From an uncultured Flavobacteriales bacterium (lineage in GTDB: Bacteria; Bacteroidota; Bacteroidia; CAIKAF01): DNA of 64,000 nt. The translations under genes and the position numbers were made by a program. Numbering within the stretch: the first letter of the stretch is position 1; each line of letters opens with the position of its first letter. Location of the stretch: positions 43,782 through 107,781 of the forward strand of contig CAILUT010000005.1 of assembly GCA_903837495.1 (NCBI GenBank), written 5' to 3'. Below are positions 303 through 30,138 of the stretch, one piece after another. The notes beneath the pieces are model-generated. The model was not told where the DNA came from. It made no database searches and saw only the letters and a list, made by a program, of their open reading frames with translations.

Positions 303-1805
303 TTGCAAAGTAACGCAGCGTTTTTCACTTTTGGCGGTCTTGCATTCGTGAAATCGTTACAACGGTATTTCTTTTTGCTGATTTCAGCATTGTTTATTCC
401 CCCGTTTGCTACGGTAGGCCGTGCGTTGGAAGGTCGCATGGTCTGCCAGAACGGGGGAGGACCTGAACAGGCCCCTGGCTTAAGCGTTTTTTATGGAGTT
501 ACCGGCGGGCCCAACGGTCCTGTGCGGGCAATGGAATTCGACAGTGCCTCAGGGATTATTTATGTAGGCGGATCCTTCACCTCGTTCTTAGCTGGAACAA
601 CCCAGGGCGATGGCCATGTTGCAGGATTCAATCCCATCACCAATCAATGGTTTGAAGTGGCGGGCGGATTGCCCGGAAAGGTAAACGATTTAATGTTCTG
701 GAATGGGATACTGTATGCCGGCGGATTATTCACGAACACCAACGGAGATGAATATGGGGTTGCTCGACTGGGCAACAGCGGCTGGGAAGAAGTAGGACTG
801 CTGAGCGGAGAAGTGCATTGCCTGCAGCTGTATCAAAATAAATTGCATGCGGGCGGGAACTTTGCCCTGAACGGGCAGGGCGGGACATCTACCTACATTG
901 CAAAATTCCTAAACGGCACTTGGAGCAGCCCCGGCTTTACCTTTAACGGAGTAGTAAAAACCATGTTGGAGTGGCAGGGGATGTTGGTCATGGGCGGAGA
1001 ATTCAACCACAGCGGACTCATGCCCAGCTTGCACGTGTTTGGCTGGAACGGAACTTCGGGCTGGGTCCCTGGCAGCCCCGGAGCCCCCGTTTATTCCCTA
1101 GAAATTTTTCAGGGGGAATTGTATGCCGGTGGCCCATTGCTTTCTGGATACGACACCTTTGGGTTGGCCAAATGGCAAAACAACCAATGGACAAACCTAA
1201 TTACGCTCGACTTCTTCAACAACACCTCGACCTTCTCGCCTACCCAGCTGGCCTCCATGGGATTTTGGAAAATAAAAAGCATCGAAAACCAGCATCCAGA
1301 TTATTTTTCGCCCCGGCAGCTGTACGCCATCGGCAATTTTTTGTTTCAACCCCAAAACTCCAATTCCCGTCCCGGGCAAAACATGCTAAGGCTCGATGCC
1401 GGCATAGGCCTTACCGGAGATAGCTTTGCCGACTCAACCGTTTACGATGTCATCGAAATCAACGGAACCCTATACGTCGCGGGGCTGTTTAGTACCATAA
1501 ATCAAATCCCGGCCTACTATTTTGGGTACAGCCGGCAAGAAGCCACCTCCATCGAAACCCACAATTCCGGCATTGGTCTTTTGAGTGCATTCCCAAATCC
1601 CAGTGCGGGCAGAATGGTTGAACTGCGTGGTTTGTCGGAATCCATGCTAGGTCAAAAAGGCAAACTGCTTAATGCCAGCGGGCAGGCGTTGGGGGAACTC
1701 ACGCTGCAATCGAACTACCAAGTAAATTTGGGCAATTTGCCCCCCGGAACCTACACCGCAAGCTGGCCCAACGGCCAATTTGTACGTTTTAGCCTTACAC
1801 CTTAA
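303..1805 (+). CDS. T9SS type-A C-terminal sorting domain protein with beta-propeller-like Gly-rich repeats
   Basis: ORF track. Repeated G-G/Y-A-GG units. C-terminus FPNPSAGRMVELRGL...GTYTASWPNGQFVRFSLTP is a typical Por secretion tail. Start is uncertain: TTG at 303 or GTG at 349 giving the signal peptide MKSLQRYFFLLISALF. Confidence 0.7.
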   Translation: MQSNAAFFTFGGLAFVKSLQRYFFLLISALFIPPFATVGRALEGRMVCQNGGGPEQAPGLSVFYGVTGGPNGPVRAMEFDSASGIIYVGGSFTSFLAGTTQGDGHVAGFNPITNQWFEVAGGLPGKVNDLMFWNGILYAGGLFTNTNGDEYGVARLGNSGWEEVGLLSGEVHCLQLYQNKLHAGGNFALNGQGGTSTYIAKFLNGTWSSPGFTFNGVVKTMLEWQGMLVMGGEFNHSGLMPSLHVFGWNGTSGWVPGSPGAPVYSLEIFQGELYAGGPLLSGYDTFGLAKWQNNQWTNLITLDFFNNTSTFSPTQLASMGFWKIKSIENQHPDYFSPRQLYAIGNFLFQPQNSNSRPGQNMLRLDAGIGLTGDSFADSTVYDVIEINGTLYVAGLFSTINQIPAYYFGYSRQEATSIETHNSGIGLLSAFPNPSAGRMVELRGLSESMLGQKGKLLNASGQALGELTLQSNYQVNLGNLPPGTYTASWPNGQFVRFSLTP

Positions 1806-1826
1806 TCCTGCTTCGCTTACCTTTGA

Positions 1827-2414
1827 ATGATGCGCCCGCTTGACCATATCGTTTCAGACTGCCTTAGGGGAAAACCCTCGGCGCAGCGGGAATTGTATGA
1901 CCGCTACGCGTCCCTGCTTCTGGGCATCTGCTTTCGCTATGCCAAAGGACGCGACGATGCCGAAGAAATCTTGCAACAATCCTTCATTAAGATTTTTACC
2001 CGCATGGAATCCTTCAACAATCAAGGCTCGTTCGAAGGCTGGATGAAGCGGGTAACCATCAATACGGCCCTGAACTTTTTAAGCAGCCAAAAACGCCTGG
2101 GATTCACCGAAGAGGTAACTCCGCAGACCGCCTTTCACAACGAAGACCCCGAGGCCGAAATGATCCGAAACATGGAACATGAAAAGCTGTTTGAATGCAT
2201 TGGTCGGCTGCCCGACGGCTACAGAGTGGTTCTTAACCTGTTTGCCATAGAAGGCCTAAGCCATAAAGAGATTGGCGAGCGCTTAGGCATTAATGAAAGC
2301 ACATCGCGTTCGCAATTCGTTCGGGCCAAATCGGCCCTGAAAAAAATATTGGAAGAGAGTTTTAACACAGATGCAATTCCCTATGTCGGTAAAGTGGTTC
2401 GAACTTCTGCGTAA
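1827..2414 (+). CDS. RNA polymerase sigma-70 factor, ECF subfamily
   Basis: Region 2 (LYDRYASLLLGICFRYAKGRDDAEEILQQSF) and region 4 (LPDGYRVVLNLFAIEGLSHKEIGERLGINESTSRSQFVRAKSAL) are conserved. Size is 195 aa. Confidence 0.85.
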   Translation: MMRPLDHIVSDCLRGKPSAQRELYDRYASLLLGICFRYAKGRDDAEEILQQSFIKIFTRMESFNNQGSFEGWMKRVTINTALNFLSSQKRLGFTEEVTPQTAFHNEDPEAEMIRNMEHEKLFECIGRLPDGYRVVLNLFAIEGLSHKEIGERLGINESTSRSQFVRAKSALKKILEESFNTDAIPYVGKVVRTSA

Positions 2415-4236
2415 GCGTGCCGGGGAGTTTCGTATGACTCCCCCGGATCGGATTTTCAGGCAGGTTCAAAATGAACTGCCCGGCCAAGCTATTCCCGGTT
2501 TGAAGGAGCAGGCCGAAGCATTTGTTGTGCAACCCTCTGCAGGCTTGTTTGACGGAATACAAGCAGGTTTGGCCAACCAAGTAGCTCCCGCATTGCAGGA
2601 ACAGGCCGACGCTTTTCGCCTAAATCCTTCCGAGCAGCTGTTTGAAAAAATTCAACAGCAACTTCCAGGGCAGGCCCTTCCCGCCTTGTCCGAAAAAGCG
2701 ACCGACTTCCGCCTACAGCCCTCGGCTAAGCTGTTTCAACACATTCAACGCCGCATGCAAGCACGCCGCCGCCGCCGTGCAGCGGCCCTCTTGCTCACAA
2801 TCCTCATCTTGGGCTCCGCTGCCTGGGTCTTGCCCACATTCTTTGGCGATTCAGGCCTGGGAACCGCCAACCAGAGCTCGGAAACGGCCCAAACTCCATT
2901 AAAAAATCAAAATCAAAACACCCCGGGTACAGAGAACCCAGAACAGCCCGAAGCAGAACCGGCAACTGCCACCGAAACAGCCTTTTCAGCCACCGGAGCA
3001 GAAAGCCTAGAGCCTTCAAACAGCAGCAATACCGGTACCGGCAGACCGAAGCAAAGCAGTTCGAAAAACAGAAATACGAGCGGGCAGGAAGAAGCCGAAA
3101 CAGGCAAAACCAAGGCCTCGGCAGCCTCCGAAAAAGAACAAGCAAGCGGCTTGGCTGCCAAAAACTCGGCTGGGCTACATTCCAACCGATCTGAGAAAAA
3201 ATCAACCCAACCCAACGGGGCTCGGCGTTCGGGAAGAGGGAATAGAAACGGGCAGGCGGAATCTGCCTCAGGCTTAGCCGGCGACCAAAAAGGAAAAGCC
3301 GAACTAGGTTTAAGCAAGCGTGAAAGCTGGGAGCCGCTGGAGTTGAAATGGGAAAAATACCAGGCACAGCGCATCGAACCCGTGTTTAGCTGGAGTTCCT
3401 TCAACAACCGCTGGAAGCGCCCACACATAGAAAAAGTATTTCTGCGTACTCCCCAGCGCCGCCCAGCCCGATTCTCGCTGCGCGGACAATTCGAAGCCAC
3501 GGCCTTAGCTACACAAATGGACTTTAGCGAAAACCCAGATTACCAAGGCAAAAAAAGCAGTTTGTTGAATCCCGCTTCTTATCAGGACTTAGAGTCAAGG
3601 CTTCAAACTCCCGACTTTTCATACCAGGTTCAAGCCGGGTTGGAGTTCGGGTTCCGATCGGTTTACCTGCGCACGGGGCTAAGTTTGCTGCGCTTGACCT
3701 ACCAGCAAAACGAGCTGCAATTTGAGCACAAATCATTGATTGTAAACGTACCCGTTACCGACACCCTGACCTTTACCAACAGTGCGGGAGTTGATACCAC
3801 GGTGGTGTACAGCTACATCAAGCCCGAGCTAAAAGACGTGCTAGACACCACGCGCATCACCTACTCGGCGCGGGCCACCTATGCGAGTATTCCCTTGGCT
3901 TTTGGCTACCGACACGAGCGGGGCCGATGGTTTGCCCAGGCCGACGTAGGCGTGGCTCTGAATCTTTTTATTGAGGGCCGCGGATTGGCCTACATGGCTG
4001 CCGGGGCCACAGTATTGGCTCCCACGGGTCAGGCCGATCAGGCATTGTGGAACAGCTTGGGCTTAGACGCCACAGCCCGACTCAAAGCAGGCTTAAAACT
4101 ATCGCGACGCTGGTCAGCCGCCCTGCACCTCGACTTGCGCATGGGCTTACGCCCAGTGTATTCGAGCGATCACGCCCTGCACCAAACCTATTCCGGCATG
4201 GGCCTAGGCTTCTCGCTAAACCACAGGATTTACTAG
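2371..4236 (+). CDS. anti-sigma-factor-like membrane protein with C-terminal outer-membrane beta-barrel (PorT/OMP_b-brl-like) domain
   Basis: Overlaps the 3' end of the ECF sigma gene. It has three tandem repeats of about 31 aa at the N-terminus, an R-rich stretch followed by one TM helix (AAALLLTILILGSAAWVLP), a long S/N/Q/E-rich low-complexity linker, and a C-terminal roughly 250 aa with alternating hydrophobic beta-strand pattern ending in an aromatic residue. Confidence 0.55.
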   Translation: MQFPMSVKWFELLRKRAGEFRMTPPDRIFRQVQNELPGQAIPGLKEQAEAFVVQPSAGLFDGIQAGLANQVAPALQEQADAFRLNPSEQLFEKIQQQLPGQALPALSEKATDFRLQPSAKLFQHIQRRMQARRRRRAAALLLTILILGSAAWVLPTFFGDSGLGTANQSSETAQTPLKNQNQNTPGTENPEQPEAEPATATETAFSATGAESLEPSNSSNTGTGRPKQSSSKNRNTSGQEEAETGKTKASAASEKEQASGLAAKNSAGLHSNRSEKKSTQPNGARRSGRGNRNGQAESASGLAGDQKGKAELGLSKRESWEPLELKWEKYQAQRIEPVFSWSSFNNRWKRPHIEKVFLRTPQRRPARFSLRGQFEATALATQMDFSENPDYQGKKSSLLNPASYQDLESRLQTPDFSYQVQAGLEFGFRSVYLRTGLSLLRLTYQQNELQFEHKSLIVNVPVTDTLTFTNSAGVDTTVVYSYIKPELKDVLDTTRITYSARATYASIPLAFGYRHERGRWFAQADVGVALNLFIEGRGLAYMAAGATVLAPTGQADQALWNSLGLDATARLKAGLKLSRRWSAALHLDLRMGLRPVYSSDHALHQTYSGMGLGFSLNHRIY

Positions 4237-4300
4237 TAGAGACGCAATATTTTGCGTCTCCGCAATATTTTGCGTCTGCGCAATATATCGCGTCTCCGCC
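4236..4300. repeat. REP hairpin cluster 1 (1 full + 2 degenerate copies of GAGACGCAATATTTTGCGTCTC)
   Basis: Palindromic stem GTAGAGACGC/GCGTCTCTAC seen directly. Overlaps the stop codon of the upstream gene. Confidence 0.7.
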
Positions 4301-4329
4301 GGTCGCATTCCCATACATCGGTTTTTGTT

Positions 4330-4473
4330 GGGGCGGCAGCCGGGCTTTCCGGGCTACTCCGCGGTCCAAAGCGGGCCGGTGCAAGCCCGGCAGTAGCTCC
4401 TCGCGTCGCTCTGCCGTGCCAACACCGGCAGCCGCTTTGGCCCTTGCGGGGTAGCCGCGTCAATCCCTGCCGC
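4330..4473 (-). repeat. GC-rich nested-hairpin intergenic element, copy A (inverted orientation)
   Basis: Ends GGGGCGGCAG...TCAATCCCTGCCGC. Internal reverse complement of the conserved core. About 70% GC against roughly 50% background. Confidence 0.65.
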
Positions 4474-4682
4474 GGGCGGCCTGGGTGAAAAACCAACAAT
4501 ATAGAATAGAGCCGCATGGGAACATCAAACACAATGTGTTGATTGCCAATTAATTAGACCTGCCAGCCTTGACAAAACAGGGAGATTGGCTTATTTTTGT
4601 TGGTTCAAAGAATCTAGGGAATACCGCAGCGCAATTGGGAGTTCCGCATCTCTGGATATTTTTCAAAATTAAAACGTCAAGA

Positions 4683-5402
4683 ATGGAAAAATTCAAGAAC
4701 AAATACCGCATTGCCTCGACCCGCGCCACATACTGGGATTATGGCTGGAATGCCGCCTATTTTATTACCATCATTACCCAAAATTGGTCTTGCTGGTTTG
4801 GCAAGGTGAAAAACAAAAAGATGGAATTATCAGACCTAGGCGCGTATGCAAATTCGTGCTGGTTGGAAATACCGAACCACTTCCCCTTTGTAGAATTGGG
4901 TGCTCATGTAATTATGCCAAACCACGTTCACGGCATTTTGATTATTAACAAACCGGTCGTAGAGACGCAATATTTTGCGTCTCCCGCCGGTAAATCAAAC
5001 CATAGCGACAACGTCGTAGAGACGCAAAATATTGCGTCTCCCGACGACAAATCAGATCGTAGCGACAACGTCGTAGAGACGCAATATTTTGCGTCTCCCA
5101 ACGGGAAATCAGACCGTAGCGACAACGTCGTAGAGACGCAAAATATTGCGTCTCTACAAACGCCACAAAACAAATTCGGGCCACAATCCCAAAATTTGGC
5201 GGCCATCGTTCGTGGATATAAAATAGGCGTAACAAAAAACGCCCGGTTGATTCACCCGAAATTCAAATGGCAACCCCGGTTCCATGACCACATTATACGT
5301 GATGAAAGGGCATTTAATGCCATTTCAAATTACATTTTAAAAACCCCGCCAAATGGAATTCCAATCGGTAGAGACGCACTATTTTGCGTCTCCCGCCGGT
5401 AA
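4683..5402 (+). CDS. REP-associated tyrosine transposase (RAYT; IS200/IS605-like HuH Y1 transposase) carrying an in-frame 68-aa REP-array insertion
   Basis: N-terminal YRIASTRATYWDYGWNAAYFITIIT, HuH motif VIMPNHVHGIL, then C-terminal WQPRFHDHIIRDERAFNAISNYILKTP (catalytic Tyr motif). Between the HuH and Tyr motifs sit four REP units translated as VVETQYFASP.../VVETQNIASP... Confidence 0.7.
   Translation: MEKFKNKYRIASTRATYWDYGWNAAYFITIITQNWSCWFGKVKNKKMELSDLGAYANSCWLEIPNHFPFVELGAHVIMPNHVHGILIINKPVVETQYFASPAGKSNHSDNVVETQNIASPDDKSDRSDNVVETQYFASPNGKSDRSDNVVETQNIASLQTPQNKFGPQSQNLAAIVRGYKIGVTKNARLIHPKFKWQPRFHDHIIRDERAFNAISNYILKTPPNGIPIGRDALFCVSRR
4956..5157. repeat. REP array (4 hairpins, alternating loop orientation, 53-60 bp period) inside the RAYT ORF
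   Basis: GTCGTAGAGACGCAATATTTTGCGTCTCC and GTAGAGACGCAAAATATTGCGTCTCTAC alternate. Inter-hairpin segments are near-identical (..AAATCAGACCGTAGCGACAACGTC). Confidence 0.8.
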
Positions 5403-5614
5403 TTCAAACCGCAGCGACAACGTCGTAGAGACGCACTATTTTGCGTCTCCCAACGAGAATTCAAACCGTAGCGACACCGTAGGGACGCACTATTTTGCGT
5501 CTCCCGCCGGGAATTAAAACCGTAGCGACACCGTAGAGACGCACTATTTTGCGTCTCCCAACGAGAATTCAAACCGTAGCGACACCATAGAGACGCAAAA
5601 TATTGCGTCTCTAC
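5368..5614. repeat. REP array (5 hairpins, period about 54 bp) at the 3' end of and downstream of RAYT
   Basis: GTAGAGACGCACTATTTTGCGTCTCC repeated four times, then GTAGAGACGCAAAATATTGCGTCTCTAC. Spacers are all about AATTCAAACCGTAGCGACACCGTA. Confidence 0.8.
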
Positions 5615-5661
5615 GGCGTAAAATCCCGCGAAATTGAATAAATTTGACCAAAATTATTGAC

Positions 5662-6039
5662 ATGAACGCACCAACAAATTGCAAGTTCTCGAAAGACCAC
5701 GAATGGATTAAATTAGACGGGGATGTTGCCATCGTCGGAATTTCGGAATTTGCGCAAGGGGAATTGGGTGATATTGTATTTATTGAAGTAGAAACCGTTG
5801 GTGAAAACATAGAAAAAGACGGTGTTTTTGGCAGCGTTGAAGCCGTAAAGACCGTTTCGGATTTGTTCATGCCGGTAGCTGGAGAGGTGCTGGAATTCAA
5901 TGAAAACCTAAACAACAATCCCGAGCTGGTAAACAGCGACCCCTACGGCGAAGGCTGGATTGTCAAGGTAAAAGTGAGCAATCCCGAGCAATTAAGCGCG
6001 CTGATGGACAGCGAGGCCTACTTGGCTTTTATTGGCTAA
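5662..6039 (+). CDS. gcvH: glycine cleavage system protein H
   Basis: [42 protein letters not shown]...[18 protein letters not shown] with the lipoyl-lysine motif. 126 aa. Confidence 0.9.
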
Positions 6040-21689: not shown

Positions 21690-22673
21690 ATGGGCGATTT
21701 GTTTTCAAATTGGACTTGGAATGTAGAGACCATCAGCGGTGCGATTCTGCTGATGACTCCCTTCGTGTTCATTTTGTTGGAACGGTATTTCCCTTATCAG
21801 AAAGGTCTTTCCATTTTCCGAAAAGGGTTTTGGATTGACTTTGTATGGTACACCCTGATTCAAAGCTTCTTTTTAAAGATATTGATCTTCGATTTCATCA
21901 TTGCCCCAGCAGAGATTTCGCTAGGCATTGAAAAAAACGGGTACATCAGCCACTGGCCCATCTGGGCTATCGTTCTGTTTTTTGTGGTTACCCACGACTT
22001 CTATATTTATTGGTTTCATCGGTTTCAACACAGCAACGCTTGGTTTTGGCGCACGCACGAGGCACACCACTCCGTTGAAAATGTAGATTGGTTGGCGGGC
22101 AGCCGCTCCCATGTTGTAGAAATCATCATCAATCAAACCATTGAATTCCTTCCCATCTTCTTTTTGCTCGACATTGAAACAGCGGCCATTGTGGTTCCAA
22201 TTAAGGCTCTTATAGATGCCATTTGGGGGCAGTTTATACATGCCAATGTGGACATCAAATTAGGCAGACTGGGGTATTTGATAAATGGGCCGGAATTGCA
22301 CCAATGGCATCATGCCGACCATGCCGAGGTTTACCACGCGAACTTTTCGACGAAATTGGCAATTTGGGACTGGCTATTTGGCACCATTTACAAGCCTGGT
22401 TTTAAACCCCGACGGTTTGGAGTTTGGTATCGCTATCCAAGGGGTTGGGCAGAGCAGCATGTATTTTCGGTGTTTCGGTTTAATGTTGGAAAATGGGAAG
22501 ACGCCGGATTCGGAAAAACAATAACAAACCTGCGCATCAATCTGCTGAACAGGCTAAGGCCTTTTTTACCCAAGGCGTGGAAGCCAATCCGTTTGGATGG
22601 CTACGAAAAATACGGCCCTAAACCCGAGTTGTACGACAGATTGCCTTCGGATATATCGAGCAGAACAGCATGA
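21690..22673 (+). CDS. sterol desaturase / fatty acid hydroxylase superfamily membrane protein (paralog of 16008)
   Basis: HRFQHS, HEAHHS and HQWHHADH histidine boxes. Confidence 0.75.
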   Translation: MGDLFSNWTWNVETISGAILLMTPFVFILLERYFPYQKGLSIFRKGFWIDFVWYTLIQSFFLKILIFDFIIAPAEISLGIEKNGYISHWPIWAIVLFFVVTHDFYIYWFHRFQHSNAWFWRTHEAHHSVENVDWLAGSRSHVVEIIINQTIEFLPIFFLLDIETAAIVVPIKALIDAIWGQFIHANVDIKLGRLGYLINGPELHQWHHADHAEVYHANFSTKLAIWDWLFGTIYKPGFKPRRFGVWYRYPRGWAEQHVFSVFRFNVGKWEDAGFGKTITNLRINLLNRLRPFLPKAWKPIRLDGYEKYGPKPELYDRLPSDISSRTA

Positions 22674-23041
22674 CCCTTTTGTGGCTGAGTTTGGCTGCAC
22701 TTTGCCAAACAGCATGGATTTGGTCCACCACGAAATTGAGCGGGCAGGCCATCCGCGACGGGCTCCGATTTGGAACAAGATCTGCCCGTTGGAAGGCCTT
22801 TTCACCTTTGCTTGTTTATTTGGCCGCAGGCATTAGCAACGTGTGGATGCTAACCCTAGTGATGCGGGAATGGCCGGCTTCATTGACCTACGGAGTTTGG
22901 ACGGGATTGGTCATAGTGCTGGCAGCGGTTCGAGAATGGATGTTTGACAACAAGGCGCTCAGGCCTAAACAGGTCTTTTTTTTGTTTTTGATTTTTATAG
23001 GTACGGCTGGACTTCATTTTTTACACGGTGAAGACAAGTAA
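22670..23041 (+). CDS. SMR/DMT-superfamily small membrane transporter subunit
   Basis: About 120 aa, four TM helices. Overlaps its downstream paralog by 14 nt, like paired SMR systems. Confidence 0.45.
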   Translation: MTLLWLSLAALCQTAWIWSTTKLSGQAIRDGLRFGTRSARWKAFSPLLVYLAAGISNVWMLTLVMREWPASLTYGVWTGLVIVLAAVREWMFDNKALRPKQVFFLFLIFIGTAGLHFLHGEDK

Positions 23042-23396
23042 GCGGGCCTGGTTTTATTTGATAGCAGCCGCCCTGATGGAAGCCTGCTGGTTTTACAGCA
23101 TACAATGGATGCAGAAATTGTCCTGGCCCGGCCGCTTTCCTTGGATAGAAGGTCCAATGGAAGGCTGGTTGGGTTTGCTTGGCTATGCAGGATTTGGAAT
23201 AGCAAATGCCTTGTTTTTTTTAAAAGCCGCCAAGTCTATACCCGCGAGCATTGCCTTTGGTGTATGGACAGGATCTGCGCTGTTTGCAATGGTTTTAATC
23301 GACCATTTTTTCGGAATTCAACCCCTGGATGTTCTTAGGAGCCTTTGCTTGCTCTTCATATTTACGGGTGTTTTGGGATTAAAAAAGGAGAGTTAA
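23028..23396 (+). CDS. SMR/DMT-superfamily small membrane transporter subunit (pair partner)
   Basis: 122 aa, four TM helices, adjacent overlapping paralog. Confidence 0.45.
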   Translation: MKTSKRAWFYLIAAALMEACWFYSIQWMQKLSWPGRFPWIEGPMEGWLGLLGYAGFGIANALFFLKAAKSIPASIAFGVWTGSALFAMVLIDHFFGIQPLDVLRSLCLLFIFTGVLGLKKES

Positions 23397-23499
23397 GGGG
23401 CATTCCTTGGTTGCGGAATCAATTTCCCTTTAAGCCTCAACTGTTTCGGTTTTCTTTCTAAAATCGCTTTCGCCCCTGCCTTGTTTTACTAAACAAGTT

Positions 23500-24852
23500 T
23501 TAAAAAATTTGCAACAAATCAATTCCAGCCCAATTTCCACTGCTCATGCATAAAAAAACGGCATGGTTCTTCGATTCTGTTTCGATGCGGGCTTTAAATT
23601 TAGCGGGGTCTGAAAAAACCTGGTCGGGTTGAATTCCCAATGCCTCGGCTACCTCGGATGGATTCAGGATTGGGAGTCGTTTTATTTCAAGAGCATGCGG
23701 ATCATACAGCACCGCGATTGAATCGGCTCCCGAAAATGCGCCTTTGTATTCTGGCAAAAACACCTTACTTAAACTGCTGTAGGTATGCAATTCTAGCAAA
23801 GCCATCAGCCGGTGTTCTGGATAGGCTTCTCTAACCGCCTGAACGGTTGCCTTCACTTTAGAGGGGCTGTGAGCAAAGTCTTTGATGGCTAAAAAGCCCT
23901 GTTCCTCTATTCGCTTCCATTCTTCCATCCGTTTTGCTGCACCCGTAAAATGGCGCATAGAGGTTAACATGGCATGGTCTGAACCGCCTAGAATTCGGTT
24001 CACCAACAAGCCCGCGCCCAAATTTTGGATGTTGTGCCTGCCTTGAATGCCAACAGGATACTCCTGACCCTCATGTTGGATCAGTGCCGTATGTCCTTGG
24101 TACCGGTAAGGCAGGGTTTTATACGGATGCCTTTGGATGTCGTTTCGGGGGTGGTTTTTTACCAACGTCTCTAAATCGGTGTCTTCTTGACAGTAAACCA
24201 GATGGGCATTCGGCATCAGAGTGTCAATGAACCGGTAAAACTGATTTCGGTAATCGTCTAGCGTCTTAAACACATTCACGTGATCCCAGGCTATGCCTGT
24301 AATAACTCCAATGTGGCCTTGATAAACATGAAACTTAGGGATGGGTTGCCGGGCAGAGGACAGATATTCATCGCCCTCAATAACGGCCAATTTGGATTCT
24401 GGGTCAAACAAAACGGGGGACTCGAGTCCTGGAACGCTAGCCCCAACCAAACAATCAAACCGGATGTTCTGGGCTTGAAGTCCATGTATAATCATGGATG
24501 TGGTGGTGGTTTTCCCGTGGCTTCCACCCACAACAACGCGTGTCTTTTGCAAGGTATATTGGGTAAAAAAGGCGGGATAAGAATGTACGGGAATTCCTAT
24601 CTCTTCAGCTCGAAGCAGCTCTGGATTGTCGGCTTTAGCGTGCATGCCCAACACCACGGCATCTAAACCTGCATGCATGCGGTCGGGGAACCAGCCCTCG
24701 GTTGTCGGCAAAAGTCCAGCAAGCTGAAGCCGTGTCCTAGAAGGCTCAAAGATTTCGTCATCAGAACCTGTTATGGTGTGGCCTTCGCGTTGCAAGGCCA
24801 ATGCCAAATTGTGCATCGCGGCTCCGCCAATGGCAATAAAATGAATGTTCAT
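23500..24852 (-). CDS. mpl: UDP-N-acetylmuramate:L-alanyl-gamma-D-glutamyl-meso-diaminopimelate ligase (murein peptide ligase)
   Basis: MNIHFIAIGGAAMHNLALAL...GSHGKTTTTSM Mur ligase P-loop. 450 aa. Confidence 0.85.
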   Translation of the reverse strand: MNIHFIAIGGAAMHNLALALQREGHTITGSDDEIFEPSRTRLQLAGLLPTTEGWFPDRMHAGLDAVVLGMHAKADNPELLRAEEIGIPVHSYPAFFTQYTLQKTRVVVGGSHGKTTTTSMIIHGLQAQNIRFDCLVGASVPGLESPVLFDPESKLAVIEGDEYLSSARQPIPKFHVYQGHIGVITGIAWDHVNVFKTLDDYRNQFYRFIDTLMPNAHLVYCQEDTDLETLVKNHPRNDIQRHPYKTLPYRYQGHTALIQHEGQEYPVGIQGRHNIQNLGAGLLVNRILGGSDHAMLTSMRHFTGAAKRMEEWKRIEEQGFLAIKDFAHSPSKVKATVQAVREAYPEHRLMALLELHTYSSLSKVFLPEYKGAFSGADSIAVLYDPHALEIKRLPILNPSEVAEALGIQPDQVFSDPAKFKARIETESKNHAVFLCMSSGNWAGIDLLQIF

Positions 24853-24869
24853 TCTTTAAAGTAATAGAT

Positions 24870-25661
24870 CTACTGACAAGTAACGGTGGTTATAACGTGG
24901 CGGTTGGATGTTCCGCCACACCAAGTTGCATGGTAATTGCAATTGGGTTCATATCCAAAACAATTGTTCGTTGAAGGATATGCAATTTGAAAACTCTGGG
25001 CTCCAGAATATCCAATTGCCTGACAAAAACAATCGGCAGTTTGTTGGTCGGTCATTGGCCACCCATACTGACTTGTGCGAATTAAGTACTCCTGGCCCGA
25101 CTGAAAATAGTTGTAGGTGTTAACGGTAACCCCGGCACTGATGGTCATTTGAAGGGAGTCTTTTTCGCTGCAACCTATGCTGTTGTAGGCGGTTAAATAC
25201 ACCCAATAGGTGCCTGCTTGCGACCAAGTAACGCTGGGGTTGGAAGAACTTGAGGTGGCTGGGGTCCCACCCTGAAAAGACCAAGAATAAGAAGCAATGG
25301 TTCCTGGCTGGGCCGCGGCAAAAGGAACAGAAACGTTTGTACCAGCCGAAGTGTTGTTGACCGAAATGCTGGGGTTGGGCGGATTTTGGCAATCGCACAA
25401 TACCGCTTGCCAGCCCCCCTGAGGCAGATGCAATTCCAAGCATTGTGTACTTGTATTGAAAACCAAAAGGCCTGCAGCCGGATTCACAATGGCATTTCGC
25501 TGTTGGGTGGTCATGCGGGGCGGCAACAAGCCCCTGTCGGTAAAATCCACATCTAAGCCAGCGCTGGAATCGGCCGGTGCCGGATTCGGACCGATGCGCA
25601 CTCCTTGAGCCGAAAGGGAGAAAGGCAACAAAGCCAGGAAAATGAATGCCACGGTTTTCAT
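24870..25661 (-). CDS. hypothetical secreted protein (Cys-rich C-terminus)
   Basis: Signal peptide MKTVAFIFLALLPFSLSAQG. No recognisable catalytic motif. Confidence 0.5.
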   Translation of the reverse strand: MKTVAFIFLALLPFSLSAQGVRIGPNPAPADSSAGLDVDFTDRGLLPPRMTTQQRNAIVNPAAGLLVFNTSTQCLELHLPQGGWQAVLCDCQNPPNPSISVNNTSAGTNVSVPFAAAQPGTIASYSWSFQGGTPATSSSSNPSVTWSQAGTYWVYLTAYNSIGCSEKDSLQMTISAGVTVNTYNYFQSGQEYLIRTSQYGWPMTDQQTADCFCQAIGYSGAQSFQIAYPSTNNCFGYEPNCNYHATWCGGTSNRHVITTVTCQ

Positions 25662-26215
25662 TAAGGTATGATATTAAATTCGATGATGGATAATATATTG
25701 GAATTCGGGACGGTTGAACCTGCACTGATTTGAATAGGTTGGCAGAGAAAAGCAGAAGTGCGGTTGTCGCGGGTTACTGCATTTTGACCGACATTAACCG
25801 AGGCGGTATGCACACAAGGACTGGCAGGAACTTCAACAATAGTTCCGGCTGGGAGCCAAGTTATCAAGCCTGATCCCTGCCCCAGTTGATGCCCGTTTGC
25901 CGTCGGGGCCAGCACACCCCCACATGAAGAGAAGTTTATAGCCGTAGCCAAGGTTGAGCCTGATGTGGATCCTGAGCATGGATTTGGCGTTGTTCCGGAC
26001 CAGTTTGCTGTAAAGGTAGAGGTGGAGGATAAAAAATGCCGAGTTCCGTAGCTGTTTTGGGTAATTTTCCAAACCCTTCCCGCAGGTACCGTGTAGGGGC
26101 TGTTGCTGTTGTCGAGCAATAGAGCTTGATTAAATTGCAGGGAACCCTGGGCCCCAAGGACTCCAAAACTGAACAACAAAAACAAAAGAGGGAATCTTTG
26201 CAGGGGCAAATTCAT
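25661..26215 (-). CDS. hypothetical secreted protein
   Basis: Signal peptide MNLPLQRFPLLFLLFSFGVLGAQG. ATGA start/stop overlap with the downstream gene. Confidence 0.5.
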   Translation of the reverse strand: MNLPLQRFPLLFLLFSFGVLGAQGSLQFNQALLLDNSNSPYTVPAGRVWKITQNSYGTRHFLSSTSTFTANWSGTTPNPCSGSTSGSTLATAINFSSCGGVLAPTANGHQLGQGSGLITWLPAGTIVEVPASPCVHTASVNVGQNAVTRDNRTSAFLCQPIQISAGSTVPNSNILSIIEFNIIP

Positions 26216-26285
26216 AAAATTGGGAAGCAGGTTTTCAAAGGTGAAGGTACAAATAAAGATTTGTGGGGTGGAAGGAAAGGAGGGG

Positions 26286-26930
26286 TTAGGCCTCGGGCCT
26301 TACCCTGCACAGATAAATTCGTTTGGGGTTTAATGCCCGACTGCCAGCCCCAACAGGTTCCGTCATCTCGCCTATTCCATTGGTTCTTTTTTGTGAACTG
26401 CGGTAGCGAATGCCTGTAATATTTCCCTGACTGTCGCGCTCCCAGCCAAGAAACAGGGCCGAATGTCCTGTGTTGTTGTTTCGCCAAAACTGCAAAAAAT
26501 CACCCGGCAGAGCATCTTCCAAATTTACCTTTTGTCCCCATTTCCATTTTTCAAGCACATGAAGGCATTGGGTTTCTGCGGCAGCGTTTGTATTCCCGTA
26601 CCAATCTTGCTGTATGCTTCGCAAAGCCTGCAAGCTTAGTGTGTCGAAACAGCCATAGGATTGCATTACTTTAAAAAACACGGTAAAAGTAAATCCAGAA
26701 CAAAAGGTGCCAGACTTGCTTCTTTTTAAAAGGGTGTCGTTCCCATGCTTAAGGGCTTCTGGGCAGCCCGTACTGGACCAAATATATTCTCCACCATTGG
26801 GATAAAAATTAGCCTGGCTTAAAAATTCGGCATTTAAACTTTGAGCGTGCGGCATTGACTCTGAAAAAAGAGGAAGGAGGGACAAACAAATAAAAGCGGT
26901 TTTGGCTAACTGGTTCAAAAATCCTGACAT
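26286..26930 (-). CDS. hypothetical secreted protein with Cys...His dyad (possible CHAP/papain-like fold)
   Basis: Signal peptide. C in TFCSGFTF and H in NTGHSALFLGW are spaced as in CHAP/NlpC-like amidases. This assignment is tentative. Confidence 0.4.
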   Translation of the reverse strand: MSGFLNQLAKTAFICLSLLPLFSESMPHAQSLNAEFLSQANFYPNGGEYIWSSTGCPEALKHGNDTLLKRSKSGTFCSGFTFTVFFKVMQSYGCFDTLSLQALRSIQQDWYGNTNAAAETQCLHVLEKWKWGQKVNLEDALPGDFLQFWRNNNTGHSALFLGWERDSQGNITGIRYRSSQKRTNGIGEMTEPVGAGSRALNPKRIYLCRVRPEA

Positions 26931-27401
26931 TGCATTGCTTTCCGTTCATGAATTGAATTCGAAAATAATCATTTTGGGGGACTCCACGGCAGCACAGGGC
27001 AATCCCAGTCCGTGTAAATGGCAGGGCATTTTTTTAGAGCGGAATTTAAGGCGAAGGCATGACCGGCGCCTATAAACCTATTTATCTAAGATAGAGCACC
27101 GATTTGAAATTCCAAATCAACAGCCCGCCGCATGTTTCCAAACCCGATTTCCCTCAACCCCAAATCCCAAGCCCCAAAAAATGTGGGATATCCTTATCGC
27201 CTGTTTCAATCCTACGATTTCCGCTGCCTAAGCGCCCGAACCTATCCGTCAGATGGGAATAAAAGCAGCATTGAGAACCCAGATGAACACAAACAGCCAT
27301 GCGGCTGTTCTTGATTCGGCATCTGAAATTCGGGTATAACCTGTTTTTTTGCCGGCCGCATTGCGTTCAGTTCAAGACACAAACCGCCCCAAAATATTCC
27401 C

Positions 27402-27409
27402 TACCTTTG
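27402..27409 (+). promoter_or_regulatory. Bacteroidetes -7 box TACCTTTG upstream of lpdA
   Basis: Exact TAnnTTTG 18 bp upstream of ATG 27427. Confidence 0.4.
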
Positions 27410-27426
27410 CAGTAAATTGTCTTGCT

Positions 27427-28830
27427 ATGCAAAGCTTTCAGGTTGTTGTAATCGGGTCAGGACCTGGCGGATATGTCGCTGCCATCCGTTGTGCTCAGTT
27501 GGGTTTAAAAACCGCGTTGATCGAAAAATATGCTACCCTAGGCGGCACCTGCCTGAATGTTGGCTGTATTCCATCAAAAGCCTTGCTTGACAGTTCAGAA
27601 CATTATTACAATGCCAGCCACACCTTCGCCGAGCACGGCATTGAGCTGAGCAACCTGAAAGTCAATTTTGCACAAATGATTGCGCGCAAAAATGAGGTGG
27701 TTAGCCAAACCAGTGGAGGGATTTCGGGTCTCATGAAAAAAAACGGAGTTGCCGTTTTTCAGGGAACAGGCTCCTTTAAAGCCAAAGGCACCATACTGCT
27801 TACCGCCAACGACGGCAGCCAAATCGATTTGAATTACGAAAAAGCCATAATTGCTACGGGATCCAAACCCGCTGGCCTTCCGGGCATTGAACCCGACAAA
27901 AAACGCATCATCACCTCGACCGAAGCCTTGAATCTAAAAGAAGTTCCCAGCCATTTGTTGGTTATTGGAGGAGGAGCCATTGGATTAGAAATGGGTTCTG
28001 TTTATGCCCGATTGGGGGCAAAGGTTAGCATTGTTGAATTTGCAGACCGGCTAATTCCGGGCTTTGACGGCACTATGAGCAAAGATTTAACCCGGGTAAT
28101 GAAAAAATTGGGTGCCGAAGTATTCACCGAAACCCGCGTAACCTCTGTAAAAAATACCGGGAAACAGGTTCTGGTTACCGCCGAAAACAAAAAAGGGGAA
28201 GCCCTTGAATGGAAGGTGTCCTACTGCCTAGTTTCCGTAGGCCGAAAACCTTACACCGAAGGATTGAACCTGGCTTCTGTTGGCCTGAGTACCGACGACC
28301 GTGGGCGGATTCCTGTCAACGATCACTTGCAAACGGCCGACCCAAATATTTACGCTATTGGCGATGTGGTGCGCGGTGCTATGCTTGCACACAAAGCCGA
28401 AGAAGAAGGCATGCTCGCCGCCGAATTGATTTCTGGACAGCAACCCCACATCAATTACTTGCTGATTCCAAATGTAGTATATACCTGGCCGGAGGTCGCC
28501 TCCGTAGGTCATACAGAAGAGGAATTGAAGGCGTCTGGCCGTGCATACAAAGTGGGTAGTTTTCCCTTCCGGGCCAGCGGTCGAGCACGAGCCAGCATGG
28601 ATTTAGATGGGCAGGTAAAGGTGCTTGCCGACAAAAACAACGATGAAATACTGGGTGTTCACATTATCGGCCCCCGTGCCGCAGACATGATTGCAGAAGC
28701 TGTAGTTGCAATGGAATATCGAGCTACCGCCGAAGACATTGCTCGAATAAGCCACGCCCACCCTACTTATACTGAAGCCTTTAAAGAAGCTTGCTTGGCG
28801 GCCACAGACAACAGAGCTATTCACATCTGA
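27427..28830 (+). CDS. lpdA: dihydrolipoyl dehydrogenase
   Basis: FQVVVIGSGPGGYVAAIRCAQLG, redox-active GGTCLNVGCIPSK, C-terminal HAHPT motif. 467 aa. Confidence 0.9.
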   Translation: MQSFQVVVIGSGPGGYVAAIRCAQLGLKTALIEKYATLGGTCLNVGCIPSKALLDSSEHYYNASHTFAEHGIELSNLKVNFAQMIARKNEVVSQTSGGISGLMKKNGVAVFQGTGSFKAKGTILLTANDGSQIDLNYEKAIIATGSKPAGLPGIEPDKKRIITSTEALNLKEVPSHLLVIGGGAIGLEMGSVYARLGAKVSIVEFADRLIPGFDGTMSKDLTRVMKKLGAEVFTETRVTSVKNTGKQVLVTAENKKGEALEWKVSYCLVSVGRKPYTEGLNLASVGLSTDDRGRIPVNDHLQTADPNIYAIGDVVRGAMLAHKAEEEGMLAAELISGQQPHINYLLIPNVVYTWPEVASVGHTEEELKASGRAYKVGSFPFRASGRARASMDLDGQVKVLADKNNDEILGVHIIGPRAADMIAEAVVAMEYRATAEDIARISHAHPTYTEAFKEACLAATDNRAIHI

Positions 28831-29057
28831 TACTTTTGCCCTATCCGCTTTTCAGTGCGTTGGGGATTTGCCTCTTCCAACAACATGCATATTCGGCTCA
28901 AACTAGCAGCTAGCTGAACCAAATGCCTTTGCAAAACAGGGGGGGCACTGACCTTTGTTGAAAAATAATGGTACATTTACTCCATTCTCCCTAGCAACAC
29001 GGCTTTCGAGGTTTCCGAGCGAAAAGAAAGTTCGACAAACATCAAACAGTACTTCCT

Positions 29058-29228
29058 TATGTTTAAGAAATTTTCACTCACCGACAAATTGCTGTTCATT
29101 TCAGCCAGCCTTTCCTTGGTATATTCTGAAATCCTTTTCTTTAATGGAAATACCAACGAAGCAATATTTGTAGGAATATGGGTTCCCAGCATCCTCGCCT
29201 TTGGAATTTATTTGAAATTAATAAATAA
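29058..29228 (+). CDS. small hydrophobic ORF (56 aa), hypothetical
   Basis: MFKKFSLTDKLLFISASLSLVYSEILFFNGNTNEAIFVGIWVPSILAFGIYLKLNK is not in the ORF track (<60 aa). Two predicted TM helices in an AT-rich islet. Confidence 0.25.
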
Positions 29229-29230
29229 AA

Positions 29231-29341
29231 ATGACTGAATTCATCCCTTATTTTGCTGGAGTTATTACTCTAATTTTTGGAGTTGCCTTTAGCTATTCGA
29301 TTACCGACGGATGGAATTTCAAAAGAAAAAAAAAGGAATAA
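29231..29341 (+). CDS. small hydrophobic ORF (36 aa), hypothetical
   Basis: MTEFIPYFAGVITLIFGVAFSYSITDGWNFKRKKKE has a single TM helix plus a basic tail. Confidence 0.2.
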   Translation: MTEFIPYFAGVITLIFGVAFSYSITDGWNFKRKKKE

Positions 29342-29440
29342 TTGCCCTGCTTGGAAAATTGTGGATTGATGGTATAGCTTAATTTAAAAAAAAAATAACG
29401 GGTTAAAAAATAAAACGAATCACTTTAATTAAATTTCAAA

Positions 29441-29791
29441 ATGAACATCTATATTCCATCTATACTTCAGCTTGCCGTAGGATTGTCGGTTATTTACGTT
29501 TGGGTTTTTCGATATGACAATGTCGTTTTGGAGTTCAAACAATTTGGTTTAAGTGATATAACGAGAAATGCGGTGGGGGCGTCAAAAACCATATTGTCAA
29601 CCTTGCTTATCGTTGGGATTTGGAAAACCGACTTGGTTTTCCTGTCGGCAATACTGATGGGGGGCTTTATGTTGGCAGCACAATATTTTCATTTTAAAGT
29701 GAATAACCCCCTCGCCAAACGCATCCCTTCTCTGGTCTTTTTGTTTTTATCGGCAATTATTGCCCTGAATCCGTTTCAATATTTGAAATGA
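29441..29791 (+). CDS. DoxX-like small membrane protein
   Basis: 116 aa, 3-4 TM helices. Tandem paralog follows with a 4-nt overlap. Confidence 0.45.
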   Translation: MNIYIPSILQLAVGLSVIYVWVFRYDNVVLEFKQFGLSDITRNAVGASKTILSTLLIVGIWKTDLVFLSAILMGGFMLAAQYFHFKVNNPLAKRIPSLVFLFLSAIIALNPFQYLK

Positions 29792-30138
29792 CAATTCAGT
29801 TTGTTTGCGTTTTAATATCAGCTGTATCTTTTTATTTCTACGGGGCCGCTTATTTTCTATCGCCGCACATAAAAGCGGAATTTAGGAGATTCAAACTGGA
29901 GCGAATAGGGGTTCTGGTGGTAGGGTTGGAATTGCTGGGCGCCACGGGTTTATTGGTGGGCCTCAAATACAATCCGCTGCTCATGGCTTCGTCTTTGGGC
30001 CTTGGGGTGTTGATGTTGTGCGGCTTAATCGTTCGCATCAAGTTTAAGGACAGCTTTTTGATTTCCATTCCAGCCTTTTTTTTCATGATTTTAAACTTTT
30101 TCATTTTTTTTCAAACCCTTAAATTTCAAAGTCCCTAA
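29788..30138 (+). CDS. DoxX-like small membrane protein (tandem paralog)
   Basis: 116 aa, 4 TM helices, same length as its neighbour. Confidence 0.45.
   Translation: MTIQFVCVLISAVSFYFYGAAYFLSPHIKAEFRRFKLERIGVLVVGLELLGATGLLVGLKYNPLLMASSLGLGVLMLCGLIVRIKFKDSFLISIPAFFFMILNFFIFFQTLKFQSP

Follow-up and report, generated by a model that had tools for sequence, protein, structure and literature searches.

Three predicted secreted proteins upstream of a Mur ligase gene in an uncultured Flavobacteriales bacterium: one system or neighbouring units?

Do three secreted proteins that are encoded side by side, on the same strand and just ahead of a cell-wall gene, form one system? The question is raised by a stretch of 64,000 nucleotides (nt) from the genome of an uncultured Flavobacteriales bacterium (GCA_903837495.1, contig CAILUT010000005.1, positions 43,782 to 107,781; hereafter the window), in which three consecutive minus-strand genes, called here A, B and C, lie between a Mur ligase gene and the divergent gene lpdA. 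A sequence-only reading of the window had described the three as an operon for a secreted cell-wall-active or antagonistic enzyme with accessory proteins. According to the analysis presented here, the region is probably a lineage-specific juxtaposition of three units, namely A, the B-C pair and the Mur ligase gene, and not a three-protein system. Shown directly are the folds, the conservation of residues, the sizes of the families and the statistics of their gene neighbourhoods; the loci and proteins used for comparison carry L and P numbers. The genes concerned are the following.

26286..26930, minus strand: gene A, 214 amino acids, a predicted Sec-exported, divergent cysteine hydrolase of the NlpC/P60 superfamily
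25661..26215, minus strand: gene B, 184 amino acids, a small, predicted secreted jelly-roll protein of an unannotated family ("LQFNQ...IEFNIIP")
24870..25661, minus strand: gene C, 263 amino acids, a predicted secreted protein with PTL_trimer, PKD and Cys-rich parts, whose start codon overlaps the stop codon of B
23500..24852, minus strand: Mur ligase gene of the MurC/Mpl type, 450 amino acids, 17 nt downstream of C
27349..28830, plus strand: lpdA (dihydrolipoyl dehydrogenase), divergent from A, TIGR01350 571.6 bits (cut-off 408.8)

The three open reading frames (ORFs) first read from the sequence were recovered at the same coordinates, as was the divergent dihydrolipoyl dehydrogenase gene, and all three are real genes, with relatives in 201 genomes (A), 1906 cluster representatives (B) and 156 proteins (C). 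The minus-strand gaps measure 70 nt between A and B, -1 nt between B and C and 17 nt between C and the Mur ligase gene, a fourth co-oriented gene that had been overlooked. An ATGA overlap described for the first two genes has to be corrected: the only overlap is that of B and C, where the junction reads TAATG and a single base, at 25661, is shared.

The signal peptides noticed earlier are supported by homologue alignments. The N-termini of A, B and C each consist of a short charged or polar stretch followed by a hydrophobic stretch ending in AQ or AQG, and the conserved mature sequence begins directly past this point in all homologues, a pattern from which export through the general secretory (Sec) pathway, with cleavage by signal peptidase I, is predicted for all three. 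The other sorting routes raised for these proteins found no support: neither PF18962 nor TIGR04183, the C-terminal sorting domains of the type IX secretion system, matched A, B or C at E<=1, and the homologues of A have no conserved lipobox. Anchoring of A as a lipoprotein through Cys15 was rejected, the preceding residues A-F-I being a poor lipobox and Cys15 not being conserved. Searches of PHROGs and PADLOC gave no meaningful match for A, B or C, and Rfam gave none across 22500-29500. Scans of viral contigs returned one relative of A and no confirmed relative of B, and with these scans nearly empty neither gene appears to be phage-associated.

Gene neighbourhoods of A and the syntenic block

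Relatives of A were collected by scanning one genome per species over about 185,000 species, which yielded 201 relatives, and B, C and the Mur ligase were sought within 5 kb of A in 80 genome loci. None of the three was present in 77 of these loci. Only the three closest loci, with an A identity of at least 63%, have C and the Mur ligase gene adjoining, and one of the three is without B. No neighbouring family was conserved in more than 11 A loci and none was conserved family-wide, while the metagenomic contexts of four relatives (P0012, P0016, P0010 and P0024) were unlike that of the window. Since the link is gone in 77 of the 80 loci, A as a rule stands alone in the genome and is not generally partnered by B and C, so that the accessory role first proposed for them is not borne out.

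The gene order is kept among close relatives. A-B-C-Mur ligase recurs in L001/L002, L007, L013 and L014, and A-C-Mur ligase, without B, is found in L015; in each of the six syntenic loci the Mur ligase gene comes next after C, and the carriers of the block are all close relatives, with A identities of 59-83%. Over five syntenic loci the identities amount to 82-95% for C, 71-87% for the Mur ligase, 71-83% for B and 59-83% for A. The gene lpdA adjoins the block in the window only and in none of five related loci compared. The Mur ligase gene, which follows the B-C pair, is possibly co-transcribed. Co-orientation and tight spacing in one genome are not evidence for a functional trio. Two further observations concern the block itself: A and C of L015 are about 300 nt apart (5610-5909), with no B between them, and C is the most conserved gene of the block, which would not usually be expected of a putative surface protein.

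Genes B and C and the PTL_trimer/jelly-roll module

If B and C are not partners of A, their own relatives have to be considered. The statement that the three proteins have no recognisable domains does not hold for C, which divides into three parts, nor entirely for A, which has a weak, sub-threshold match to NlpC/P60. The parts of C are as follows.

25386..25607, minus strand: PTL_trimer domain (PF26696), about residues 19-92
25140..25376, minus strand: PKD domain, residues 96-174 (PF00801 39.7 bits, cut-off 23.5; PF18911 38.3 bits, cut-off 27)
24873..25139, minus strand: C-terminal domain with six cysteines, residues 175-263

The PTL_trimer domain of C is assigned through its homologues: PF26696 matches are precomputed for P0084 (100% identical over 76%), P0082 (90%) and P0083 (87%), and also for the syntenic C genes of L001, L002 and L007. 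The Cys-rich tail was correctly recognised from the start, with six cysteines in the last 58 or so residues that are preserved in close homologues; all six are kept in P0082, P0083 and P0085, and also in P0087, whose middle region differs. PTL_trimer proteins elsewhere bear lectin-type heads (Fib_succ_major, Lcl_C/DUF1566, Laminin_G_3 and fibrinogen C). The six-Cys tail was tried as a degenerate Lcl_C or Fib_succ_major head, both C-type-lectin-like, and was rejected for both, the hhalign probability being below 1% in each case.

Gene B has no match in Pfam, NCBIfam, PHROGs or PADLOC. Its fold is an eight-stranded jelly-roll beta-sandwich in which the first and last strands are adjacent, a trait shared with the closest folds, those of the nucleoplasmin core and of viral single jelly-roll proteins; a search of the viral folds of BFVD returned nothing significant (best E-value 0.05). 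Members of the B family share a frame that begins with a signal peptide ending in AQG, passes through LQFNQ, TVPAGKVWK and WLPAG and closes with a C-terminal S(I/V)IEFN(I/V)(I/V)P directly before the stop. B has all of the motifs QG-LQFNQ, VP..K.WK, W.PAG and S.IEFN..P, which do not vary among 34 aligned members; the terminal strands are invariant and the middle region is hypervariable. Searched with the family profile, 1.84 billion cluster representatives (clusters at 50% identity) yielded 1906 members at E<=1e-3, of which 1124 reach E<=1e-10. Almost all are single-domain proteins of 105-190 residues, and the top match was P0027, the representative of B's own cluster (98% identical to B; E 4.8e-37).

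Members of this family usually occur in tandem. At least two copies are present in 78 of 82 loci, with a range of 2-18 genes, and overlaps between neighbouring copies are common, as in L011 and L009 (4 nt); in the window B is present once. The following arrays may serve as examples.

L011, 3089-6865: 11 genes of the B family
L009, about 800-5080: 10 genes of the B family
L122, 183-9450: 18 genes of the B family

Divergent double arrays were also seen (L094, L127, L162/L163, L166 and L170). The B family is without a Pfam or NCBIfam model and its arrays are undescribed; no account of either was found in the open-access literature that was searched, where only the Lcl structure paper and DGR papers came up.

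The link between B and C comes from these loci. A hidden Markov model (HMM) of the N-terminal domain of the C family detected a PTL_trimer ORF in 24 of the 82 B loci, on the same strand as the nearest B gene and abutting it in 23 of the 24 (median gap 0 nt); the 77 non-syntenic A loci (about 700 kb) yielded no such ORF. Immediately upstream of the B arrays lie genes for collagen-like proteins (Pfam Collagen), which are built from G-X-Y repeats, PTL_trimer and a Gly/Ser linker and close with the invariant C-terminus NTLIYT-x-DGF, and the HMM of the N-terminal region of C matches the collagen-like proteins beside B arrays with E-values of 1e-19 to 1e-26. An ORF ending in the DGF motif is present in 40 of the 82 B loci and in neither the A loci nor the window. 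Collagen-like genes with the NTLIYT-x-DGF end include the following.

L094, 1664-3349, minus strand
L127, 3257-4849, minus strand
L130, 1690-3801, plus strand
L166, 3619-5268, plus strand
about 36 other loci

Within the 18-gene array of L122, a C-like protein is encoded that has a signal peptide, an N-terminal PTL_trimer domain and Gly_rich_2. As side observations, the divergent double-array loci have a second collagen-like gene, with a tail-fibre chaperone domain (Peptidase_S74) at its end, and the NTLIYT-x-DGF end is a candidate for a sorting signal or a docking strand.

As the B and C families are linked elsewhere without A nearby, the B-C pair of the window looks like a reduced, atypical version of a recurrent Bacteroidota module: B is present once, and C has no collagen repeats, an N-terminal PTL_trimer domain and a six-Cys head of its own. 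In this module a secreted PTL_trimer protein, usually a collagen-like fibre, is encoded beside one or many small secreted jelly-roll proteins, and B and C would be a translationally coupled pair representing its minimal form. C may be a trimeric surface or fibre-like binding protein, with B as its partner or as an alternative binding module.

The closest described counterparts of such proteins are adhesins with a collagen or trimeric stalk, among them C1q-like proteins and Lcl of Legionella, a trimeric collagen-like glycan-binding adhesin in which Lcl_C is the head on a collagen stalk (PMC11162425). Like these, PTL_trimer proteins join a trimerisation element, which is often a collagen triple helix, to lectin-type heads that vary. 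In contrast to the Lcl type, C has no collagen repeats and its head consists of PKD and a private six-Cys domain, and the jelly-roll proteins of the array loci are separately encoded and secreted instead of being fused heads. A stalk-head contact between fibre and jelly-roll proteins is a conjecture. Tentatively, an undescribed surface system of Bacteroidota may be envisaged, in which trimeric PTL_trimer/collagen-like fibres with the NTLIYTxDGF end would be co-expressed with arrays of up to 18 jelly-roll proteins, invariant in their terminal strands and hypervariable in their loops, that would serve as exchangeable tips or partners, so that a C1q-like set of heads, encoded apart from the fibre, would diversify binding specificity, and of which the B-C pair would be a minimal instance. 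About 1,900 clusters of jelly-roll proteins, arrayed behind collagen-like and tail-fibre-like genes, point to a large unstudied surface system in freshwater and marine Bacteroidota, and the association of B with PTL_trimer is newer than A, itself an enzyme of an ordinary kind.

Gene A as a divergent NlpC/P60-superfamily protein

What, then, would A do on its own? The features of the protein on which the answer depends are given below.

26841..26930, minus strand: signal peptide, about residues 1-30, ending in ...PHAQ (predicted cleavage site)
26700..26702, minus strand: codon TGT of Cys77, predicted nucleophile, in a CSG motif at the N-terminus of helix 77-91
26463..26465, minus strand: codon CAT of His156, predicted general base, at the start of strand 155-165 and after the GDFLQFWR strand
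26391..26393, minus strand: codon CAA of Gln180, candidate third catalytic residue, in the invariant YRSSQ motif (176-180)

The signal region is a variable, hydrophobic N-terminus (pLDDT 61-77), and conserved sequence starts from AQ onward in 24 homologues. The AlphaFold2 (AF2) model of A (pLDDT 91.3) has the papain-like alpha+beta fold of the NlpC/P60 superfamily, and the best structural matches in a fold search were all peptidoglycan hydrolases, with identities of 13-25%. At the level of sequence the relationship is distant. Weak matches to the NLPC_P60 profile occur in 16 of 24 homologues (best E-value 1.9e-4); searches of the PDB sequences, with the single sequence as with a profile, gave marginal matches only (E 0.22-1.1); and among 26 homologue clusters from a word-indexed search none has a precomputed Pfam domain, one being labelled as an NlpC-family hydrolase by the Joint Genome Institute (JGI). 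With private invariant motifs of its own (YRSSQ..T.G and QFWR), A represents a divergent, unannotated family inside the NlpC/P60 superfamily and is not a strict member of PF00877.

The cysteine and histidine that had been picked out in TFCSGFTF and NTGHSALFLGW are indeed present, as Cys77 and His156, and each is invariant in all 85 distinct relatives of A; nor did the profile searches assign A, B and C all to a well-known housekeeping family. According to a DSSP assignment on the model, Cys77 opens helix 77-91, in a motif F/Y-C-S/C-G, and His156 opens strand 155-165 directly after the GDFLQFW strand (145-150). The family profile aligns the GDF..F...GH stretch of A to the catalytic histidine region of RipA, with His156 against RipA His432. 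The structural intuition about this Cys-His pair was right: the two residues are placed on helix and strand in the canonical way. Their spacing is 79 residues and not about 50. As for a third residue, the HMM alignment sets RipA Glu444 against residue 168 of A, which is non-conserved. Position 180 is Gln in 84 of the 85 relatives and Asn in one, and by the register of the hairpin 155-165/171-180 it stands opposite His156. Since residue 180 faces His156 where canonical members put their third residue, Gln180 is a candidate for the third catalytic residue, which would orient His156 from the neighbouring strand.

The nearest known systems are the NlpC/P60 (MEROPS C40) DL-endopeptidases LytE, CwlO, SagA, Acd24020, RipA and MepS of Escherichia coli. 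From these A differs in a beta-hairpin of about 20 residues inserted ahead of the cysteine, in a helical insert of about 45 residues that accounts for the wider Cys-His spacing, in a lengthened His hairpin with the invariant YRSSQ, in a candidate third residue that is Gln in place of His or Glu, and in having no SH3b, LysM or coiled-coil targeting domains. Among CHAP-domain amidases the resemblance is slight, with one CHAP match in 24 homologues (E 0.15). By analogy with its structural relatives, A most likely uses Cys77 and His156, as nucleophile and general base, for thiol hydrolysis of a stem-peptide amide of peptidoglycan in the periplasm, where it would act alone; that this amide is of the gamma-D-glutamyl type, or another stem-peptide bond, is suggested by the nearest folds alone.

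An antagonistic role is not supported by these data. Amidase effectors of the type VI secretion system (T6SS) have no signal peptide and are paired with immunity genes. A differs from those of the Tae/Tse1/Tae4 kind in having a signal-peptide-like segment in all homologues, no conserved adjacent immunity-like gene over 85 loci and no match in PADLOC or PHROGs.

The relatives of A belong mostly to aquatic Bacteroidota (Crocinitomicaceae, Lishizhenia, Cytophagales and Saprospiraceae), Planctomycetota and Verrucomicrobiota, and include proteins of the cultured Planctomycetota Lacipirellula limnantheis and Botrimarina hoheduenensis. In two cases a relative of A is joined to a transglutaminase-like core, one in a Granulosicoccus metagenome-assembled genome (MAG; L059, 4938-6989) and one in a Planctomycetaceae MAG (L088, 4884-7013). 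In both, a C-terminal region of about 450 residues matches Transglut_core (E 8e-19), which gives two papain-like cysteine domains per exported protein; such fusions hint at protein or peptide amide chemistry and do not fix the substrate. A is thus an unannotated and strongly conserved NlpC/P60 branch of these three aquatic groups, of a familiar enzyme class with an unusual Cys-His-Gln set in which Gln is the candidate member, and knowledge of its substrate would extend the range of recorded cell-wall or gamma-glutamyl hydrolases.

Alternative readings and flanking genes

Several observations weigh against a juxtaposition of three units in which A is a cell-wall hydrolase. The A-(B)-C-Mur ligase block is kept in six lineages, with upstream flanks that differ and downstream flanks that differ in three loci, and its preservation despite changing flanks could reflect a functional coupling, which is discounted here. 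No terminator-like site was found between the four minus-strand genes and no Bacteroidota -7 motif (TAnnTTTG) in the minus-strand intergenic gaps, which makes co-transcription with A plausible; the scans for sigma-70 promoters and terminators gave counts no higher than shuffled sequence. The window is without a collagen-like gene ending in NTLIYTxDGF, the PTL_trimer domain of C is N-terminal and not near the C-terminus, which makes the B-C pair atypical of the module, and the PTL_trimer proteins P0087 and P0088 have no B neighbour. A itself reaches 14.7 bits against NLPC_P60 (PF00877), below the gathering score of 23 bits (E 0.031), and its large insertions relative to canonical members make a non-peptidoglycan substrate possible. 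A rival reading, close to the one first drawn from the sequence, takes A, B, C and possibly the Mur ligase as one functional operon, in which a cysteine amidase would attack the cell wall or competitors, with B and C in accessory, targeting or immunity roles. The shared strand, the short gaps with no terminator-like site between and the gene order kept amid different flanks in L001/L002, L007, L013 and L014 (and in L015 without B) are in keeping with this, and a downstream Mur ligase suits a cell-wall theme. However, the layout is confined to relatives with an A identity of at least 59% and is missing from 77 of the 80 loci and from the four metagenomic contexts, which have no B, C or ligase; B is dispensable in L015; genes of the B and C families are found linked, and linked to collagen-like genes too, with no A relative near; and C, which is more conserved (82-95%) than A (59-83%), is ill-suited to an accessory role. 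A single functional operon is, on balance, improbable.

Two other readings concern the chemistry of A. As an active enzyme of the NlpC/P60 fold, A might act, as a secreted or periplasmic amidase, on something other than the cell's own peptidoglycan, such as exogenous murein fragments, poly-gamma-glutamate or cyanobacterial or algal peptides, or it might be a protein modifier of the acyltransferase or transglutaminase-like kind. Its patchy distribution (201 of about 185,000 species) does not fit core wall machinery, it has diverged far from canonical C40 peptidases with its private YRSSQ..T.G and QFWR motifs, two relatives carry the transglutaminase-like fusion, and the superfamily also includes gamma-polyglutamate hydrolases and acyltransferases; yet the best structural matches are all peptidoglycan hydrolases, and in the window lineage A shares a block with a Mur ligase, so that such a substrate is conceivable but rather unlikely. 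That A is a catalytically inactive, RipD-like binding protein, as a weak NCBIfam match to the inactive RipD model (E 0.036) and the sub-threshold Pfam score might suggest, is highly improbable, because the Cys77, His156 and Gln/Asn180 positions are each kept in 85 of 85 relatives over three phyla, which is unexpected for a pseudo-enzyme. The reading of three juxtaposed units, with A as an exported hydrolase acting alone and B and C as a reduced PTL_trimer/jelly-roll pair, is the one preferred here.

The third unit, the Mur ligase gene, contains the Mur_ligase, Mur_ligase_M and Mur_ligase_C domains. It scores under both equivalog cut-offs (murC 216.5 bits, cut-off 335; mpl 129.5 bits, cut-off 389), its closest relatives of solved structure are MurC proteins, and it may be described as a stand-alone MurC/Mpl-like paralogue. 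Peptidoglycan recycling as a process coupling A to this ligase was considered and is kept as context only, given that the link is absent in 77 of the 80 loci.

Beyond the ligase, at 21690-23396 on the plus strand, there is a gene of the fatty-acid-hydroxylase family with a sub-threshold match to the ornithine-lipid hydroxylase OlsE (96 bits, cut-off 475; E 2.4e-27). It is followed by two small-multidrug-resistance (SMR) genes that are adjacent and overlap and that probably encode a paired SMR transporter, and the trio of hydroxylase and SMR genes also flanks the block in L001 and L013. On the far side of lpdA, the G+C content falls to 0.33 at 29000-29499, compared with about 0.46-0.50 in the neighbouring segments, and this low-G+C stretch sits immediately upstream of a pair of small hydrophobic ORFs (29441-30138).

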